This document shows, piece by piece, positions 19,486-48,499 of a stretch of DNA of 64,000 bases. This stretch comes from Escherichia coli. Lineage in GTDB: Bacteria > Pseudomonadota > Gammaproteobacteria > Enterobacterales > Enterobacteriaceae. The stretch is taken from assembly GCF_022846255.1 (NCBI RefSeq), contig NZ_AP025682.1. One strand, 5' to 3'. Positions within the stretch are counted from its first letter, which is position 1. Every line of letters starts with the position of its first letter. The position numbers were made by a program, and so were the translations under genes. The notes beneath the pieces were generated by a model that saw only the letters and a program-made list of their open reading frames with translations, did not search any database and was not told where the DNA came from.

Positions 19486-22281
19486 ATGGAGATAATTATG
19501 AGAAACCTCTGTTTCTTACTGACGTTAGTGGCAACTCTGTTGCTCCCCGGGCGACTGATTGCCGCCGCCTTACCGCAGGATGAAAAGTTAATTACCGGGC
19601 AACTGGACAATGGCTTGCGATATATGATTTATCCGCATGCTCAACCAAAGGATCAGGTAAATTTATGGCTGCAAATTCATACCGGTTCATTGCAGGAAGA
19701 AGACAATGAGCGCGGCGTGGCTCATTTTGTAGAACATATGATGTTTAACGGCACAAAAACATGGCCGGGTAATAAAGTCATCGAAACATTTGAGTCAATG
19801 GGCCTGCGTTTTGGTCGCGATGTTAATGCCTATACCAGCTATGACGAAACAGTGTATCAGGTGAGTTTGCCGACTACGCAGAAACAAAATCTGCAACAAG
19901 TGATGGCAATCTTCAGTGAATGGAGTAATGCCGCAACCTTTGAAAAACTCGAAGTAGACGCTGAACGCGGCGTAATTACTGAGGAATGGCGTGCCCATCA
20001 GGATGCGAAATGGCGCACCTCTCAGGCGCGCCGCCCTTTCCTGCTGGCAAATACCCGTAATTTAGACCGTGAACCTATCGGCCTGATGGATACCGTCGCC
20101 ACGGTCACACCGGCACAATTGCGCCAATTTTATCAACGCTGGTATCAACCAAATAATATGACCTTTATTGTGGTCGGCGATATCGACAGTAAAGAAGCGC
20201 TGGCGCTGATAAAGGATAATTTAAGTAAGCTTCCGGCTAACAAAGCAGCTGAAAATCGCGTCTGGCCGACAAAAGCCGAAAACCACCTGCGCTTTAATAT
20301 CATCAATGATAAAGAAAACCGGGTGAACGGCATCGCACTCTATTATCGCCTGCCAATGGTACAAGTGAACGATGAGCAAAGCTTTATCGAACAAGCTGAA
20401 TGGAGCATGTTGGTTCAGCTGTTCAACCAACGTCTGCAGGAACGCATACAGTCGGGCGAGTTGAAGACTATTTCTGGCGGCACTGCGCGCAGCGTCAAAA
20501 TTGCACCCGATTATCAGTCGCTATTTTTCCGTGTAAATGCACGAGACGATAATATGCAGGATGCTGCGAATGCATTAATGGCAGAGTTGGCAACCATTGA
20601 TCAGCATGGTTTTTCTGCTGAAGAACTCGATGATGTTAAATCTACCCGCCTTACCTGGCTGAAAAATGCGGTTGATCAGCAAGCTGAGCGTGATTTACGT
20701 ATGCTGACCAGTCGCCTGGCATCCAGCTCATTAAATAATACGCCGTTCTTGTCGCCGGAAGAGACATATCAACTTTCGAAACGTCTGTGGCAGCAAATTA
20801 CCGTGCAAAGTCTGGCGGAAAAATGGCAGCAGTTAAGAAAGAACCAGGACGCATTTTGGGAGCAAATGGTAAACAATGAAGTTGCCGCCAAAAAAGCATT
20901 GTCTCCTGCGGCTATCCTGGCGCTGGAAAAAGAGTACGCCAACAAAAAGCTGGCGGCTTACATCTTCCCAGGCAGAAATTTATCGTTAACAGTAGACGCT
21001 GACCCACAGGCGGAAATTAGCAGCAAAGAAACGCTGGCTGAGAATCTGACATCATTAACACTTTCCAATGGTGCCAGGGTTATTCTGGCAAAATCCGCGG
21101 GTGAAGAGCAAAAGCTACAAATTATTGCCGTATCTAATAAAGGCGATTTAAGTTTCCCTGCGCAGCAAAAATCACTTATCGCGCTGGCTAATAAAGCAGT
21201 AAGCGGAAGCGGCGTTGGTGAACTCTCCTCTTCCAGCCTGAAACGCTGGAGTGCGGAAAACTCGGTAACCATGAGCAGTAAAGTCAGTGGCATGAATACG
21301 TTGCTCTCCGTTAGCGCGCGGACTAATAACCCTGAACCTGGTTTCCAGTTGATTAACCAGCGAATCACCCACAGCACGATTAACGACAATATTTGGGCAT
21401 CGCTGCAAAATGCTCAAATTCAGGCGTTGAAAACGCTCGACCAGCGTCCAGCGGAGAAATTCGCCCAGCAGATGTATGAGACGCGCTATGCTGATGACCG
21501 CACGAAATTACCGCAAGAAAATCAGATTGCACAGTTTACTGCCGCAGATGCACTGGCTGCCGATCGCCAGTTGTTTTCATCTCCAGCGGATATCACGTTT
21601 GTCATTGTCGGTAATGTCGCAGAAGACAAACTCGTGGCGTTAATTACGCGTTACTTAGGATCTATCAAACACTCTAATTCGCCATTAGCCGCAGGTAAAC
21701 CATTAACTCGCGCGACGGACAACGCATCGGTTACTGTAAAAGAACAAAATGAACCAGTGGCACAGGTTTCACAGTGGAAGCGTTATAATTCCCGGACTCC
21801 TGTTAATCTGGCGACGCGTATGGCGCTCGATGCTTTTAACGTCGCACTGGCAAAAGATCTACGCGTTAATATTCGTGAACAGGCATCTGGAGCATACAGC
21901 GTTTCTTCTCGCCTCTCGGTTGATCCTCAGGCCAAAGATATCAGTCATTTGCTGGCTTTTACTTGTCAACCAGAACGACATGATGAACTGTTAACGTTAG
22001 CGAATGAAGTGATGGTTAAGCGTCTGGCTAAAGGGATCAGTGAGCAAGAACTGAATGAATACCAGCAAAACGTTCAGCGCAGCCTCGATATCCAACAGCG
22101 TAGCGTTCAACAATTAGCGAACACCATTGTAAATAGTCTTATTCAATATGACGATCCTGCAGCATGGACTGAGCAGGAGCAATTATTGAAACAAATGACG
22201 GTAGAGAATGTTAACACTGCCGTTAAACAATATCTTTCTCATCCGGTGAATACCTATACCGGAGTATTATTGCCAAAATAA
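19486..22281 (+). CDS. pqqL: Periplasmic M16-family zinc metallopeptidase
   Basis: 931 aa; inverted zinc-binding motif HFVEH…E. Confidence 0.9.
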   Translation: MEIIMRNLCFLLTLVATLLLPGRLIAAALPQDEKLITGQLDNGLRYMIYPHAQPKDQVNLWLQIHTGSLQEEDNERGVAHFVEHMMFNGTKTWPGNKVIETFESMGLRFGRDVNAYTSYDETVYQVSLPTTQKQNLQQVMAIFSEWSNAATFEKLEVDAERGVITEEWRAHQDAKWRTSQARRPFLLANTRNLDREPIGLMDTVATVTPAQLRQFYQRWYQPNNMTFIVVGDIDSKEALALIKDNLSKLPANKAAENRVWPTKAENHLRFNIINDKENRVNGIALYYRLPMVQVNDEQSFIEQAEWSMLVQLFNQRLQERIQSGELKTISGGTARSVKIAPDYQSLFFRVNARDDNMQDAANALMAELATIDQHGFSAEELDDVKSTRLTWLKNAVDQQAERDLRMLTSRLASSSLNNTPFLSPEETYQLSKRLWQQITVQSLAEKWQQLRKNQDAFWEQMVNNEVAAKKALSPAAILALEKEYANKKLAAYIFPGRNLSLTVDADPQAEISSKETLAENLTSLTLSNGARVILAKSAGEEQKLQIIAVSNKGDLSFPAQQKSLIALANKAVSGSGVGELSSSSLKRWSAENSVTMSSKVSGMNTLLSVSARTNNPEPGFQLINQRITHSTINDNIWASLQNAQIQALKTLDQRPAEKFAQQMYETRYADDRTKLPQENQIAQFTAADALAADRQLFSSPADITFVIVGNVAEDKLVALITRYLGSIKHSNSPLAAGKPLTRATDNASVTVKEQNEPVAQVSQWKRYNSRTPVNLATRMALDAFNVALAKDLRVNIREQASGAYSVSSRLSVDPQAKDISHLLAFTCQPERHDELLTLANEVMVKRLAKGISEQELNEYQQNVQRSLDIQQRSVQQLANTIVNSLIQYDDPAAWTEQEQLLKQMTVENVNTAVKQYLSHPVNTYTGVLLPK

Positions 22282-22287
22282 TAACAG

Positions 22288-42676: not shown

Positions 42677-45600
42677 TTACGCCTTCTCGATGTTGACTAA
42701 GAACGCTTTATATTCCGGCGTTTGCGAGTTTGCATCACCGACATTCGGCGTCAGAGTGTTAGCGATATAACCTTTACGCGCGACACCCTCAAAGCCCCAG
42801 TGGATCGGAATACCCACCGTTTCAACCTGCTGACCGTTTACATTCAGCGGTTTCAGACGGCGCGTTACCACCGCCACCGCGCGGATAAAGCCACGCTTGC
42901 TTGAGACAGTGACACGATCGCCATTATTAATGCCTTTCGCCGCCGCCAGCGTTTCGCTGATTTCCACAAACTGTTCCGGCTGAGCAATTGCGTTGAGCAA
43001 CGCGTGCTTGGTCCAGGTGTGGAAGTGCTCGGTCAGACGATAGGTCGTACCCACATACGGGAACTGCTCTTTTTTACCCATCCGCAGCGCGTCTTGTTCA
43101 TACAGACGAACGACCGGGTTAGACACCACGTTCGGATGCAGCGGGTTAGTGCCCAGCGGCGTTTCAATCGGCTCGTAGTGTTCCGGGAACGGACCTTCCG
43201 CCATTTTGTTGATGGCAAACAGGCGTCCCATCCCTTCCGGCTGCATGATAAACGGTCCGGTTGGTGTACCTGGCGCGGCATTGCCGAAGTCCGGAATATC
43301 GTTACCCGTCCACTTGCTGCCGTTCCACTGAATCAGCATCCGTTTCGGATCCCACGGTTTACCGTTGATATCCGCCGAAGCACGGTTGTAGAGTACGCGA
43401 CGGTTGAGCGGCCACGCCCAGGCCCATCCCAGCGTATTCCCCAGACCAGATGGGTCAGAGTTATCGCGGTTAGCCATCTGGTTGCCCTGCTCTGTCCAGC
43501 TACCGGTGTAGATCCAGCAAGACGATGCGGTTGTACCGTCATCACGCAGATGCGCAAAGCTACTCAGCAACTGACCTTTCTTCGCAATCAGCACGCCATT
43601 GGCATCATAGAGATCTTCCAGCGCGTAGCCGTTGTTCTCTTTCGCTACTTCGTCAGATTGCGGTTCGTGCGGCTGCTTGTAGTTCCAGCTCATCTTCATC
43701 AGCGGTTCTACGCCTTTACCACCCTCGGCCTGGTACAGCTCGCGCAGATGATGGTAGATACCCGCCAGAATTTCGCCGTCGTTACGTGCTTCGCCCGGCG
43801 CGTCCTGACCTTTCCAGTGCCACTGCAACCAGCGACCGGAGTTAGCGATAGAACCATCTTCTTCAGCAAAGCAGGTCGAAGGCAGACGGAATACTTCAGT
43901 CTGAATAGATGCCGGATCGACATCGTTCGACTCGCCGTGGTTCTGCCAGAAGGTAGAGGTTTCAGTCACCAGCGGATCGATAACCACCATGTACTTCAGT
44001 TTGCTCAGGCAGCTCACCACTTTGTTTTTGTCCGGGAAGGACGCAACCGGGTTAAAGCCCTGGCAGAAATAACCGGTGACTTTGCCTTCGTCCATCATGT
44101 TGAAATACTTGATGACGTCGTAGGTCTGGTCCCACTTCGGCAGCCAGTCGTAGCCCCAGTTGTTCTCTTTCTGCGCGGCATCGCCGTAGAAAGATTTCAT
44201 CAGGCTAACGAAAAACTTCGGATAGTTGCTCCAGTAGTTCACCTGATCAGCCAGCGTCGCTTTCGGCGTGTTCGCTTCCAGATACGACTGCAAATCAACC
44301 TGTTTTTCTGACGGCAGCGTCAGATAACCTGGCAGGCTGGTAGAGAGCAGGCCTAAGTCAGTCAGGCCCTGAATGTTGGAGTGACCACGCAATGCGTTCA
44401 CGCCGCCACCGGCCATACCCATGTTACCGAGCAGCAACTGGATCATCGCCATCGTACGGATGTTCTGCGCACCCACGGTGTGCTGCGTCCAGCCCAGCGC
44501 GTACAGGAAGGTGGTTGTGCGATCCGGTGCGCTGGTGGAGGCCAGCACTTCACACACTTTCAGGAAGTCGGCTTTTGGCGTACCGCAAATGTTTTCTACT
44601 ACGTCCGGCGTGTAGCGGGAAACGTGCGCTTTCAGCAGATTCCATACACAGCGCGGATGAGTCAGCGTGTCATCGCGTTTCGCATAGCCGTTTTCATCGA
44701 ACTGATAGTTCCAGGACGACTTATCGTATTGACGTTTTTCAGCGTCGTAGCCGCTGAACAGACCGTCTTCGAAAGCAAAATCATCACGCACCAGCAGGCT
44801 GGCGTTGGTGTAATGCTTAACGTATTCGGCGTTGATTTTGTTGTTTTCGATCAGGTAGCGCAAAACGCCAGACAGGAACGTAATGTCCGTACCGGAACGA
44901 ATAGGTGCGTAAATATCCGCCACAGAAGCGGTACGCGTAAAACGGGGATCGACAACGATCAAGGTTGCATCGTTGTTGTTTTTCGCTTCCATCGCCCAGC
45001 GGAAACCGACGGGATGCGCTTCAGCAGCGTTACCGCCCATCACCATTACGACGTTAGCGTTTTTGATATCCACCCAGTGGTTGGTCATCGCACCGCGACC
45101 AAATGTTGGAGCAAGACTTGCTACCGTTGGTCCGTGTCAGACGCGCGCCTGGTTGTCTACCGCCAGCATCCCGAGGGAGCGGGCAAATTTTTGAGTCAGC
45201 ATCCCGGTTTCGTTGCTGGCACCGGAAGCACACAGCATACCGGTAGAAAGCCAACGGTTTACCGTTACGCCCTGCTCGTTCTTTTCAATAAAGTTAGCGT
45301 CACGGTCGGCTTTCATCAGCTTCGCAATACGGGAGAATGCTTCTTCCCAGCTAATGCGCTGCCATTTGTCAGAACCTGGCGCACGATATTCCGGGTAGCG
45401 CAGACGGTTTTCGCTGTTGACGTAATCCAGCAAACCGGCCCCTTTCGGGCACAGCGCACCACGGCTTACCGGATGATCCGGGTCACCTTCAATGTGATAA
45501 ATCGCTTCTCTGGCGTTTTTCGCGCCATCACCCAGGCTATACATCAATAGCCCGCAACCTACGGAACAGTATGTGCAGGTGTTACGGATCTCTTTCGCGC

Positions 45601-45724
45601 GTAATAATTTGTAGTTTCGCGCCTGAGCCAGTGCTTGCTTCGGGGCAAAGCCCAATGCTGCTACTGTTGTTCCCGCCATACCGCCCGCGCAGATTTTAAA
45701 AAATTGTCTGCGACTGACGTCCAT
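42677..45724 (-). CDS. fdnG: Formate dehydrogenase-N alpha subunit, selenocysteine-containing (TGA at 45137..45139 read as Sec)
   Basis: Two ORF-track pieces (195 aa and 803 aa) are in one frame separated only by TGA; context …VDNQARV-U-HGPTVASLAPTFGRGAMTNHW…; Tat signal MDVSRRQFFKICAGG at N-terminus. Confidence 0.95.
45090..45139 (-). other. Selenocysteine UGA codon plus downstream SECIS stem-loop region in fdnG mRNA
   Basis: In-frame TGA at 45137..45139 (minus strand) inside an otherwise uninterrupted 1016-codon frame; bacterial SECIS lies immediately 3' of the UGA. Confidence 0.85.
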
Positions 45725-45788
45725 TGCTTTCCTCTTTTTTCAGGGGTATTACTGCGCGAGGAAACTAACAGTAAAATTCTGAATCTTT

Positions 45789-45802
45789 TTGCGCGAAATC
45801 AA
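45789..45802 (-). promoter_or_regulatory. Putative FNR half-site pair in fdnG promoter
   Basis: TTGCG-CGAA-ATCAA, partial match to TTGAT-N4-ATCAA; position relative to the transcription start not determinable here. Confidence 0.4.
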
Positions 45803-45849
45803 AAAGAACACGTGTTTGCCACAAAATAATCCTCCTGCGCAAATTGACC

Positions 45850-45865
45850 TACCTCAATAGCGGTA
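45850..45865 (-). promoter_or_regulatory. NarL 7-2-7 heptamer pair upstream of fdnG
   Basis: TACCTCA-AT-AGCGGTA, inverted TACYYMT heptamers with 2-bp spacer, ~130 bp upstream of the fdnG start codon. Confidence 0.6.
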
Positions 45866-45956
45866 GAAAAACGCACCACTGCCTGACAGGCCAGTTAAAA
45901 AAAATGCTATAAAATTCAGCTTAATTTTTAACGGCAAGAGAGACAAAACAGCGAGC

Positions 45957-46838
45957 ATGACACGACAAAAAGCAACGCTCATAGGGCTAATAGCGATCGT
46001 CCTGTGGAGCACGATGGTAGGATTGATTCGCGGTGTCAGTGAGGGACTCGGCCCGGTCGGCGGCGCAGCTGCTATCTATTCATTAAGCGGGCTGCTGTTA
46101 ATCTTCACGGTTGGATTTCCGCGTATTCGGCAGATCCCGAAAGGCTATTTACTCGCCGGGAGTCTGTTATTCGTCAGCTATGAAATCTGTCTGGCGCTTT
46201 CCTTAGGGTATGCGGCGACCCGTCATCAGGCGATTGAAGTGGGGATGGTGAACTATCTGTGGCCCAGCCTGACAATTCTCTTTGCCATTCTGTTTAATGG
46301 TCAGAAAACCAACTGGCTGATTGTACCAGGATTATTATTAGCCCTGGTCGGCGTCTGCTGGGTGTTAGGCGGTGACAATGGGTTACATTATGATCAAATT
46401 ATTAATAATATCACCACCAGCCCATTGAGTTATTTCCTGGCGTTCATTGGGGCGTTTATCTGGGCAGCCTACTGCACAGTAACGAATAAATACGCACGCG
46501 GATTTAACGGAATTACCGTTTTTGTCCTGCTAACGGGAGCAAGTCTGTGGGTTTACTATTTTCTTACGCCACAACCAGAAATGGTATTTAGCACGCCCGT
46601 CATGATTAAACTCATCTCTGCGGCATTTACCTTAGGATTTGCTTATGCTGCATGGAATGTCGGTATATTACATGGCAACGTCACCATAATGGCGGTAGGT
46701 TCGTATTTTACGCCCGTCCTTTCCTCAGCGCTTGCAGCCGTGCTGCTCAGCGCCCCGCTGTCGTTCTCGTTCTGGCAAGGCGCGCTAATGGTCTGCGGCG
46801 GTTCCCTGCTCTGCTGGCTGGCGACACGTCGTGGCTAA
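45957..46838 (+). CDS. yddG: Aromatic amino acid exporter (DMT family)
   Basis: 293 aa, ten predicted TM segments. Confidence 0.92.
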   Translation: MTRQKATLIGLIAIVLWSTMVGLIRGVSEGLGPVGGAAAIYSLSGLLLIFTVGFPRIRQIPKGYLLAGSLLFVSYEICLALSLGYAATRHQAIEVGMVNYLWPSLTILFAILFNGQKTNWLIVPGLLLALVGVCWVLGGDNGLHYDQIINNITTSPLSYFLAFIGAFIWAAYCTVTNKYARGFNGITVFVLLTGASLWVYYFLTPQPEMVFSTPVMIKLISAAFTLGFAYAAWNVGILHGNVTIMAVGSYFTPVLSSALAAVLLSAPLSFSFWQGALMVCGGSLLCWLATRRG

Positions 46839-47110
46839 AATAATTGTCGGGTCTACGGCCCGGCAGTTAATCAGATAAATTCTGACAATATTAAAAAATA
46901 AATTTCAAATACCAGAAAGTCATTTTAGTTACATTTAGTAACACATATCTGTCTGTTTATTCCACATTCTGCCCCCGCAGTTACGCTTTCTTATCTATTC
47001 TTCTAATCAGCACTTCACCTGATTCATCCTTAATTCTAATAACTGGCTATTGCGCCTTACCTCCTGTTTTGTCTTTTTTTCATTACCAATGTGTGCATGT
47101 GAGGAACAAT

Positions 47111-48499
47111 ATGGCACTGCAAAATGAGAAAAATAGTCGTTATCTTTTACGCGACTGGAAACCAGAAAATCCGGCCTTCTGGGAAAATAAAGGAAAGCAT
47201 ATTGCACGAAGAAACCTCTGGATATCAGTCAGTTGCCTACTTCTTGCCTTCTGTGTCTGGATGCTATTTAGCGCAGTTACTGTTAATCTCAATAAAATCG
47301 GTTTTAATTTCACTACCGATCAACTCTTTTTATTAACCGCATTACCCTCCGTTTCTGGCGCATTATTGCGTGTCCCCTACTCCTTTATGGTGCCTATATT
47401 CGGTGGACGCCGATGGACGGTTTTTAGTACTGCAATCCTGATTATTCCTTGCGTCTGGCTCGGAATTGCCGTGCAAAATCCGAATACCCCTTTTGGGATA
47501 TTTATCGTTATCGCTTTGCTATGCGGTTTTGCAGGTGCGAACTTTGCTTCGAGCATGGGCAATATCAGTTTCTTCTTTCCAAAAGCCAAACAAGGGAGCG
47601 CTCTTGGGATTAATGGCGGATTAGGAAACTTAGGTGTAAGTGTGATGCAGCTGGTTGCACCGCTGGTCATTTTTGTCCCCGTATTTGCCTTTCTCGGCGT
47701 CAATGGCGTACCGCAGGCCGACGGTTCGGTGATGTCGCTGGCGAATGCCGCATGGATTTGGGTGCCATTACTGGCGATTGCCACGATCGCCGCCTGGTCA
47801 GGGATGAATGATATCGCCAGTTCACGCGCCTCAATTGCCGACCAGCTCCCTGTCTTGCAACGCCTGCATCTCTGGCTGCTGAGCCTGCTTTATCTTGCCA
47901 CCTTCGGTTCGTTTATCGGTTTTTCTGCGGGTTTTGCCATGCTGGCAAAAACCCAGTTCCCGGATGTGAATATTCTGCGCCTGGCGTTCTTTGGCCCATT
48001 TATCGGTGCCATCGCGCGATCGGTTGGTGGTGCTATTTCCGATAAATTCGGCGGCGTGCGGGTGACGTTGATCAACTTCATTTTTATGGCGATTTTCAGC
48101 GCCCTGCTGTTCCTTACCTTACCGGGCACAGGCTCCGGTAATTTCATCGCATTTTACGCCGTATTTATGGGGCTGTTTCTGACCGCGGGTCTGGGAAGTG
48201 GTTCTACTTTCCAGATGATCGCCGTCATCTTTCGCCAGATAACAATTTATCGGGTGAAGATGAAAGGCGGTAGTGATGAGCAAGCTCAAAGAGAAGCCGT
48301 CACCGAAACGGCAGCCGCTCTGGGCTTTATCTCAGCCATTGGCGCAGTGGGCGGCTTTTTTATTCCGCAGGCGTTTGGCATGTCGCTCAATATGACCGGC
48401 TCTCCGGTGGGCGCGATGAAAGTGTTTTTAATCTTCTACATCGTTTGTGTGCTACTGACCTGGCTGGTTTATGGTCGGCGGAAGTTCAGCCAAAAATAA
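47111..48499 (+). CDS. narU: Nitrate/nitrite transporter (MFS)
   Basis: 462 aa from MALQNEKNSRYLLRDWKPENPAFWE…. Confidence 0.93.
   Translation: MALQNEKNSRYLLRDWKPENPAFWENKGKHIARRNLWISVSCLLLAFCVWMLFSAVTVNLNKIGFNFTTDQLFLLTALPSVSGALLRVPYSFMVPIFGGRRWTVFSTAILIIPCVWLGIAVQNPNTPFGIFIVIALLCGFAGANFASSMGNISFFFPKAKQGSALGINGGLGNLGVSVMQLVAPLVIFVPVFAFLGVNGVPQADGSVMSLANAAWIWVPLLAIATIAAWSGMNDIASSRASIADQLPVLQRLHLWLLSLLYLATFGSFIGFSAGFAMLAKTQFPDVNILRLAFFGPFIGAIARSVGGAISDKFGGVRVTLINFIFMAIFSALLFLTLPGTGSGNFIAFYAVFMGLFLTAGLGSGSTFQMIAVIFRQITIYRVKMKGGSDEQAQREAVTETAAALGFISAIGAVGGFFIPQAFGMSLNMTGSPVGAMKVFLIFYIVCVLLTWLVYGRRKFSQK

Follow-up and report, generated by a model that had tools for sequence, protein, structure and literature searches.

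The yddG–fdnG divergent intergenic region

The stretch of Escherichia coli DNA analyzed here (64 kb, referred to throughout as the window) carries a divergent intergenic region of 232 bp at positions 45725–45956, which separates the coding regions of fdnG and yddG:

42677–45724, minus strand: fdnG coding region, formate dehydrogenase-N alpha subunit (from ORFs, TIGR01553, SECIS_3 and the RefSeq annotation of near-identical genomes)
45957–46838, plus strand: yddG coding region, DMT-family aromatic amino acid exporter (NF008676 equivalog, 472 bits against a cut-off of 194; RefSeq annotation)

A first-pass annotation of the sequence had named this the fdnG-yddG divergent region, and both gene names were confirmed by the profile matches together with the RefSeq annotation. 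The segment 45600–46100 was matched in 5,413 of 5,426 complete E. coli genomes, and it shares 99.8% identity with the corresponding segment of strain Nissle 1917, which is annotated there as yddG and fdnG. The fdnG reading frame starts with an ATG at 45724 and contains an in-frame TGA at 45137–45139, the codon of selenocysteine 196. TIGR01553 was matched on both sides of this codon, with model positions 1–194 upstream of the TGA (in the first 195 codons) and positions 196–1009 downstream, and the TGA is located inside a SECIS_3 match at 45084–45142 (84 bits, Rfam scan). The fdnG SECIS was the only structured RNA found by the Rfam scan of 44800–46200, and none was found in the intergenic region; a mir-129 match with E = 0.3 was dismissed as noise.

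A generic sigma-70 promoter and terminator scan of 45650–46050 returned no matches. This empty result is expected from an fdnG promoter that is activator-dependent with a TAGTTT −10, and the yddG −10 (TATAAA) was missed because the scan rule demands a T at position 6. For comparison among species, 80 loci were fetched with an FdnG N-terminus probe (species representatives from more than 20 enterobacterial genera, with 88–100% identity), and their upstream regions and that of the window, 81 in all, were placed in a gapless alignment anchored on the FNR site.

Published control elements map to a single fdnG start point

The FNR site of E. coli fdnG has been located at −42.5 and the NarL heptamers at −77, −100, −109 and −124 (PMC3349551). 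The heptamers curated with their flanks for b1474 are CGGATTA, TGAGGTA, TACCGCT and AGTGGTG, among which TGAGGTA and TACCGCT are marked as a 7-2-7 pair (3a/3b), and 7-2-7 sites are reported for fdnG, napF, nirB and nrfA (PMC2718512). In the window, the four curated heptamers are centered at 45830, 45853, 45862 and 45877, and the FNR site at 45795.5. When these centers were compared with the mapped fdnG elements, a check suggested in the first-pass annotation, one start point was found to fit: 45753 is the sole coordinate from which each of the five elements falls where it was published, and it sets the motif centers at −42.5 (FNR) and −104.5 (NarL/NarP). The elements of the fdnG control region are as follows:

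45753, minus strand: fdnG transcription start, an A located 29 nt before the ATG, inferred from the published positions (predicted K-12 coordinate 1,547,372 in U00096.3)
45762–45770, minus strand: fdnG extended −10, TGtTAGTTT, −17 to −9 (conserved register in the 81 loci)
45789–45802, no strand: FNR site, center −42.5, TTGCGCGAAATCAA (fdnG strand, TTGATTTCGCGCAA)
45827–45833, plus strand: NarL heptamer −77, TAATCCT (K-12, TAATCCG; curated as CGGATTA for b1474)
45850–45865, no strand: NarL/NarP 7-2-7, center −104.5 (curated b1474 pair, matrix rank and conservation)
45850–45856, plus strand: NarL heptamer −100, TACCTCA, half of the 7-2-7
45859–45865, minus strand: NarL heptamer −109, TACCGCT, half of the 7-2-7
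45874–45880, plus strand: NarL heptamer −124, CACCACT (curated as AGTGGTG for b1474)

The interval 45789–45865, to which the first-pass annotation had drawn attention, extends between the outer edges of the FNR site and the 7-2-7. Both motifs named there, a partial FNR-like site TTGCG-N4-ATCAA at 45789–45802 and a NarL 7-2-7 TACCTCA-AT-AGCGGTA at 45850–45865, could be read directly in the sequence, and their proposed tie to the known nitrate and anaerobic control of fdnG was borne out by their match to the documented elements at −42.5 and −104.5. The annotation had overlooked the −77 and −124 NarL heptamers and, at −97.5, the region's strongest FNR-type site. As documented control elements of fdnG, the two motifs that it named are already known; the start point and the binding to these elements rest on secondary citations.

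Between −150 and the ATG, four bases set the window apart from K-12 MG1655 (−84, −80, −59 and −58), and the sole published element touched by these differences is the −77 heptamer, at its last base (−80, window 45833), where the change brings the heptamer nearer to the consensus than that of K-12. At the −80 position, the other six Escherichia sequences compared all have C. The extended −10 of fdnG, TGnTA(G/A/T/C)nTT, was found in register in nearly all of the 81 loci and was exactly TGTTAGTTT in 49 of them, with no recognizable −35 element in the fdnG promoter. In the published numbering its hexamer lies at −14 to −9, which is 2 bp beyond the typical distance from the start.

Matrix rank, position and conservation of the FNR and NarL sites

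With at most two mismatches allowed, the 7-2-7 consensus was observed 5 times in the 64-kb window against 3.6 expected from shuffling, and the FNR consensus 49 times against 41 expected; judged by consensus alone, neither motif occurs less often in 64 kb than chance predicts. These counts, equal to the shuffled expectation across the window, are what speaks for regarding both motifs as functionless chance matches. Since the consensus could not separate sites from chance, matrices built from published sites were used instead: an FNR matrix from 62 FNR sites located under ChIP-seq peaks by Myers et al. 2013 (PMC3688515, Table S6) and a NarL matrix from 68 curated NarL heptamers (PMC2718512, Additional file 4), with the fdnG sites left out of both.

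The 7-2-7 consists of two heptamers that each match TACYYMT at 6 of 7 positions and are arranged head-to-head with a 2-bp spacer. It scored 5.3 + 7.0 bits, ranking third of 63,984 positions by the summed score and second by the weaker half. The −42.5 FNR site matches TTGAT-N4-ATCAA at 8 of 10 positions and scored 10.3 bits, ranking ninth of 63,987. In this matrix scan, of the kind proposed in the first-pass annotation, the FNR site is sub-threshold in spite of its high rank; the same annotation had aptly called the FNR site a weak match, in that its score falls under the weakest of the 62 training sites (11.4 bits) and the site is missing from the thresholded list of Myers et al. Taking a matrix score under threshold as refutation, as that annotation proposed, would have wrongly rejected this site, which all 81 loci have.

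The NarL matrix gave 7.0–7.2 bits to the −77 heptamer, and the −124 heptamer is a poor consensus match that is unconserved beyond Escherichia. Three other NarL-like matches were set aside. The window's best 7-2-7-like match, at 22251–22266, lies in the coding sequence of pqqL and is presumably due to chance, and that at 47485–47500 lies in the coding sequence of narU and was likewise treated as chance. In the leader of fdnG, the perfect NarL heptamer TACCCCT (45742–45748, minus strand, +5 to +11) is probably a chance match as well; about 0.09 such perfect heptamers are expected in the region, and TACCCCT is unconserved beyond Escherichia and absent from the published fdnG heptamers found. Apart from this, the pqqL region 22000–22500 has just 90–96% identity to nearly all complete E. 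coli genomes and, judged by that identity, is a divergent or mosaic allele.

Conservation among the loci was assayed for each element. TTGATTTnnnnCAA was present and unique in all of the 81 fdnG upstream regions, and the imperfect GCAA half-site of the −42.5 FNR site was kept in 76 of them. The FNR center lies 31 bp from the center of the −10 hexamer. Among 23 FNR-activated promoters, 19 have their site within −41.5 ± 4 (Myers et al., PMC3688515), and the fdnG FNR site, at −42.5 from the literature-derived start, falls inside this range. The −42.5 position is therefore that of a class II activator, one half-site being deliberately imperfect. Within 300 bp, the best-scoring 7-2-7 was located exactly 62 bp upstream of the FNR center in 73 of the 81 loci and 61 bp upstream in three more. 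Its outer TA steps were kept in 72–73 of the 81 loci, while the heptamer interior varied within the TACYYMT consensus, a pattern to be expected of a functional site and not of shared ancestry alone. Within Escherichia (seq­uences compared: seven; 30 of 140 columns variable), contact positions were variable in 1 of 38 columns versus 29 of 102 elsewhere (Fisher p = 4e-4).

In three distant loci without an upstream yddG, the 7-2-7 is centered at −81.5, 39 bp upstream of the FNR site; the right heptamer of these 7-2-7 sites is in register with the −77 heptamer of E. coli.

That both motifs share one intergenic stretch of 232 bp and stand at the proper distances to a conserved −10 is far beyond chance. 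The position, the matrix rank, the identity with experimentally studied K-12 sites, and the conservation of sites and spacing in 73–81 of the 81 loci all oppose the view that the motifs are functionless matches, the probability of which is practically nil. That view is already refuted, and the comparison across genera settles the question of chance. Phospho-NarL and NarP are reported by Li et al. in 1994 and Darwin et al. in 1996/1997 to footprint the fdnG 7-2-7, which is said to be needed for nitrate induction.

A second FNR-consensus site overlaps the NarL 7-2-7 in Escherichia

Published FNR ChIP-seq and ChIP-chip peaks lie between fdnG and yddG, and Myers et al. (PMC3688515) class fdnG as 'activated by FNR in nitrate and by NarL'. 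The intergenic region contains a further FNR-type site:

45844–45857, no strand: FNR-consensus site, center −97.5, TTGAGGTAGGTCAA (FNR matrix, 15.8 bits)

With 15.8 bits, this site is the top FNR matrix match of the 64-kb window. It covers all 7 bp of the NarL heptamer −100 and sits 55 bp upstream of the −42.5 FNR site. It was found to be confined to Escherichia and absent from every other locus compared, and so falls outside the conserved mechanism; by this distribution, the stronger upstream FNR site would be a recent Escherichia addition. Myers et al. 2013 (PMC3688515) assigned the −97.5 site to the yddG/fdnG peak, their coordinate 1545292 (U00096.2) being its first base. The ChIP-seq summit in the same study, from cells grown without nitrate, is at 1545309, about position 45840 of the window (−87), which is 10.5 bp from the −97.5 center and 44.5 bp from the −42.5 center. 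Because the summit is nearer to the −97.5 site, in vivo occupancy of the −42.5 site is not assignable from those peaks.

The higher matrix score of the −97.5 site and its closeness to the summit, together with a −42.5 site under the published prediction threshold, could be taken to mean that anaerobic induction is driven from −97.5 and that the −42.5 match is incidental. This is highly improbable. All 81 loci have the −42.5 site, at a fixed distance to the conserved −10, and only Escherichia has the −97.5 site; FNR activation normally proceeds from the class II position; and the literature puts the functional site at −42.5 (PMC3349551). As far as sequence comparison can tell, conservation has largely refuted induction from −97.5 already.

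A different role is conceivable for the upstream site in Escherichia, namely that FNR bound at −97.5 damps fdnG in the absence of nitrate, and that phospho-NarL displaces FNR, relieves the damping and activates. Such a role would accord with the best FNR matrix match in 64 kb being predicted under the Myers peak, with the no-nitrate summit lying so close to its center, and with its overlap with an entire NarL heptamer. The seven Escherichia sequences show no variation in either half-site, including the GTCAA that the NarL site does not cover, and E. albertii differs at one spacer base only, but five invariant bases among closely related genomes are weak evidence. The 55-bp spacing between the two fdnG sites resembles the 53 bp of the yfiD pair, in which the upstream FNR site down-regulates, and Pseudocitrobacter carries an independent FNR-like site at −92.5. 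Counting against damping are the lack of the −97.5 site in all non-Escherichia loci and the dispensability for anaerobic induction that Li and Stewart in 1992 reportedly found for a second Fnr-like sequence near −97.5. On this balance we regard damping from −97.5 as rather unlikely.

The 7-2-7 lies at a conserved distance from a predicted yddG promoter

On the other side of the 7-2-7, a promoter element could be recognized for the divergent gene:

45905–45913, plus strand: predicted yddG extended −10, TGcTATAAA (conserved as TGyTATAAA; start expected near 45920)

In 73 of the 80 fetched loci, yddG and fdnG are divergent, and TGyTATAAA was recognizable in 67 of these 73. The distance from the 7-2-7 center to the center of the yddG extended −10 was 49.5–52.5 bp in 63 of the 67 loci and exactly 50.5 bp in 50. 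The sequence of the 38 bp between the two elements is unconserved, no conserved −35 was found for yddG among the loci compared (a −35-like CTGACA at 45883–45888 is unconserved), and the leaders of both yddG and fdnG vary widely in length among loci; the spacing therefore looks selected. Relative to yddG, the 7-2-7 is predicted at −61.5 in 50 loci. In the window it is predicted at −62.5, the A-run at 45897–45904, in the spacer of the yddG promoter, being one A longer than in K-12 (8 A versus 7). A location at about −61.5 from the predicted yddG start would be a classical class I position.

The 7-2-7 might on these grounds be shared, with NarL/NarP also controlling yddG from the class I position and yddG being regulated by nitrate or nitrite. 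The spacing between the 7-2-7 and the yddG −10 is conserved in some 20 genera, and NarL is able, according to the literature, to activate from −67.5 and −77.5 via alpha-CTD contacts. Circumstantially, yddG and fdnG shift in the same direction and by a similar size in Salmonella Infantis RNA-seq, and they shift alike in CpxR perturbations (PMC9600279). On the other hand, the −61.5 position is itself predicted, from a predicted yddG start; no literature tying yddG to NarL or nitrate was found; the FNR peak is given to fdnG only by Myers et al. (PMC3688515); and a fixed length could stem from another constraint of a compact divergent region. Control of yddG through the shared site is accordingly offered as a tentative suggestion, with the odds against it, and it adds to the FNR–NarL explanation of fdnG control without replacing it. 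The wider form of the suggestion, in which the 7-2-7 is a bidirectional nitrate switch, yddG an unrecognized NarL/NarP member, and the site in Escherichia, through the added high-affinity FNR site over its heptamer, a shared node at which FNR and NarL compete, is equally tentative. If true, the aromatic amino acid and paraquat exporter gene yddG would be nitrate-regulated, which is a cheap and testable prediction; possible NarL control of yddG is the sole new lead here.

A conserved block at −78 to −65 and a candidate CpxR box

The anchored alignment contains one more element in the fdnG control region:

45818–45831, no strand: conserved block, −78 to −65 (high column conservation in the anchored alignment)

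This block, GATTATTTTGTGGC in E. coli and GACTATTAAGGGGG in most genera (33 loci), belongs to the most strongly conserved parts of the control region and overlaps the −77 heptamer. It scored as a NarL heptamer in Escherichia only, the median elsewhere being −0.8 bits. No convincing match emerged when the block was compared by eye with −10 elements on either strand and with the consensus sequences of IHF, Fis, ModE, TyrR, TrpR and OxyR. A CpxR box has been predicted in the fdnG-yddG intergenic region, and both genes change in a CpxR-dependent manner (PMC9600279); GTAAAATTCTGAATC at 45771–45785 is a possible candidate for this predicted box.

Neighborhood beyond yddG

In K-12, yddL, yddK and yddJ lie between yddG and narU; in the window, these three genes appear to be absent from that position. 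The ORF at 47069–48499, about 230 bp past yddG, appears to be narU, and contains positions 48062–48075. At these positions, inside narU and upstream of narZ, TTGATCAACGTCAC is the second-best FNR matrix match of the window. Myers et al. (PMC3688515) placed this site within narU and listed it among predicted FNR sites that have no ChIP peak.

Proposed control of fdnGHI by FNR and NarL

Taken together, the interval 45789–45865 very probably holds the cis-regulatory core of the E. coli fdnGHI (formate dehydrogenase-N) promoter. In the best-supported account, which is the established one, active FNR would occupy the imperfect −42.5 site when oxygen is absent, and from there would activate, in class II fashion, a promoter with an extended −10 (TGtTAGTTT) but lacking a −35. 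Nitrate would be sensed by NarX, giving phospho-NarL, a dimer of which would bind the 7-2-7 at −104.5, with further binding at the flanking single heptamers −77 and −124, and NarL binding would raise fdnG transcription further. Given the weak FNR site, full expression would need both signals, and the conserved weakness of that site fits a promoter requiring both inputs. NarP would be able to occupy the same 7-2-7. Work on yeaR and ogt has indicated that NarL dimers bind 7-2-7 sites and that alpha-CTD contacts activate; from −104.5, NarL likely reaches RNA polymerase via an alpha-CTD contact or DNA bending. The binding and activation by FNR and NarL and the in vivo occupancy by FNR are taken from the literature and not from this analysis.

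The finding re-identifies textbook sites of a well-studied E. coli promoter, which are unchanged in this strain except at −80. It is of use as a positive control, both sites having been located to the base from sequence alone, and it illustrates that a matrix threshold alone would reject a genuine FNR site whose weakness evolution deliberately maintains. The conservation across Enterobacteriaceae of the 62-bp FNR–NarL spacing and of the imperfect FNR half-site is a modest comparative addition.

Comparison with known systems

The K-12 fdnGHI control region is the same locus, and its elements are base-for-base identical to those of the window except for the last base of the −77 heptamer. The napF, nirB, nrfA, yeaR and ogt promoters likewise carry inverted TACYYMT heptamers with a 2-bp spacer that are bound by a response-regulator dimer, but their 7-2-7 sites are located at about −43.5 to −77.5, whereas that of fdnG is at −104.5. 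Since the fdnG 7-2-7 lies that far from the start, with a class II FNR site 62 bp downstream of it, a direct polymerase contact is less obvious. The narG promoter resembles that of fdnG in being an FNR-dependent class II promoter with NarL co-activation from far upstream; it differs in having no 7-2-7 and in needing IHF-mediated bending, whereas fdnG has a 7-2-7 together with the conserved −78 to −65 block, and no IHF-like site was seen in its control region. Like fdnG, yfiD has two FNR-consensus sites about 53–55 bp apart, of which the downstream one is class II, but the upstream FNR site of fdnG, which occurs in Escherichia only, is the stronger of its pair and shares bases with a NarL heptamer.
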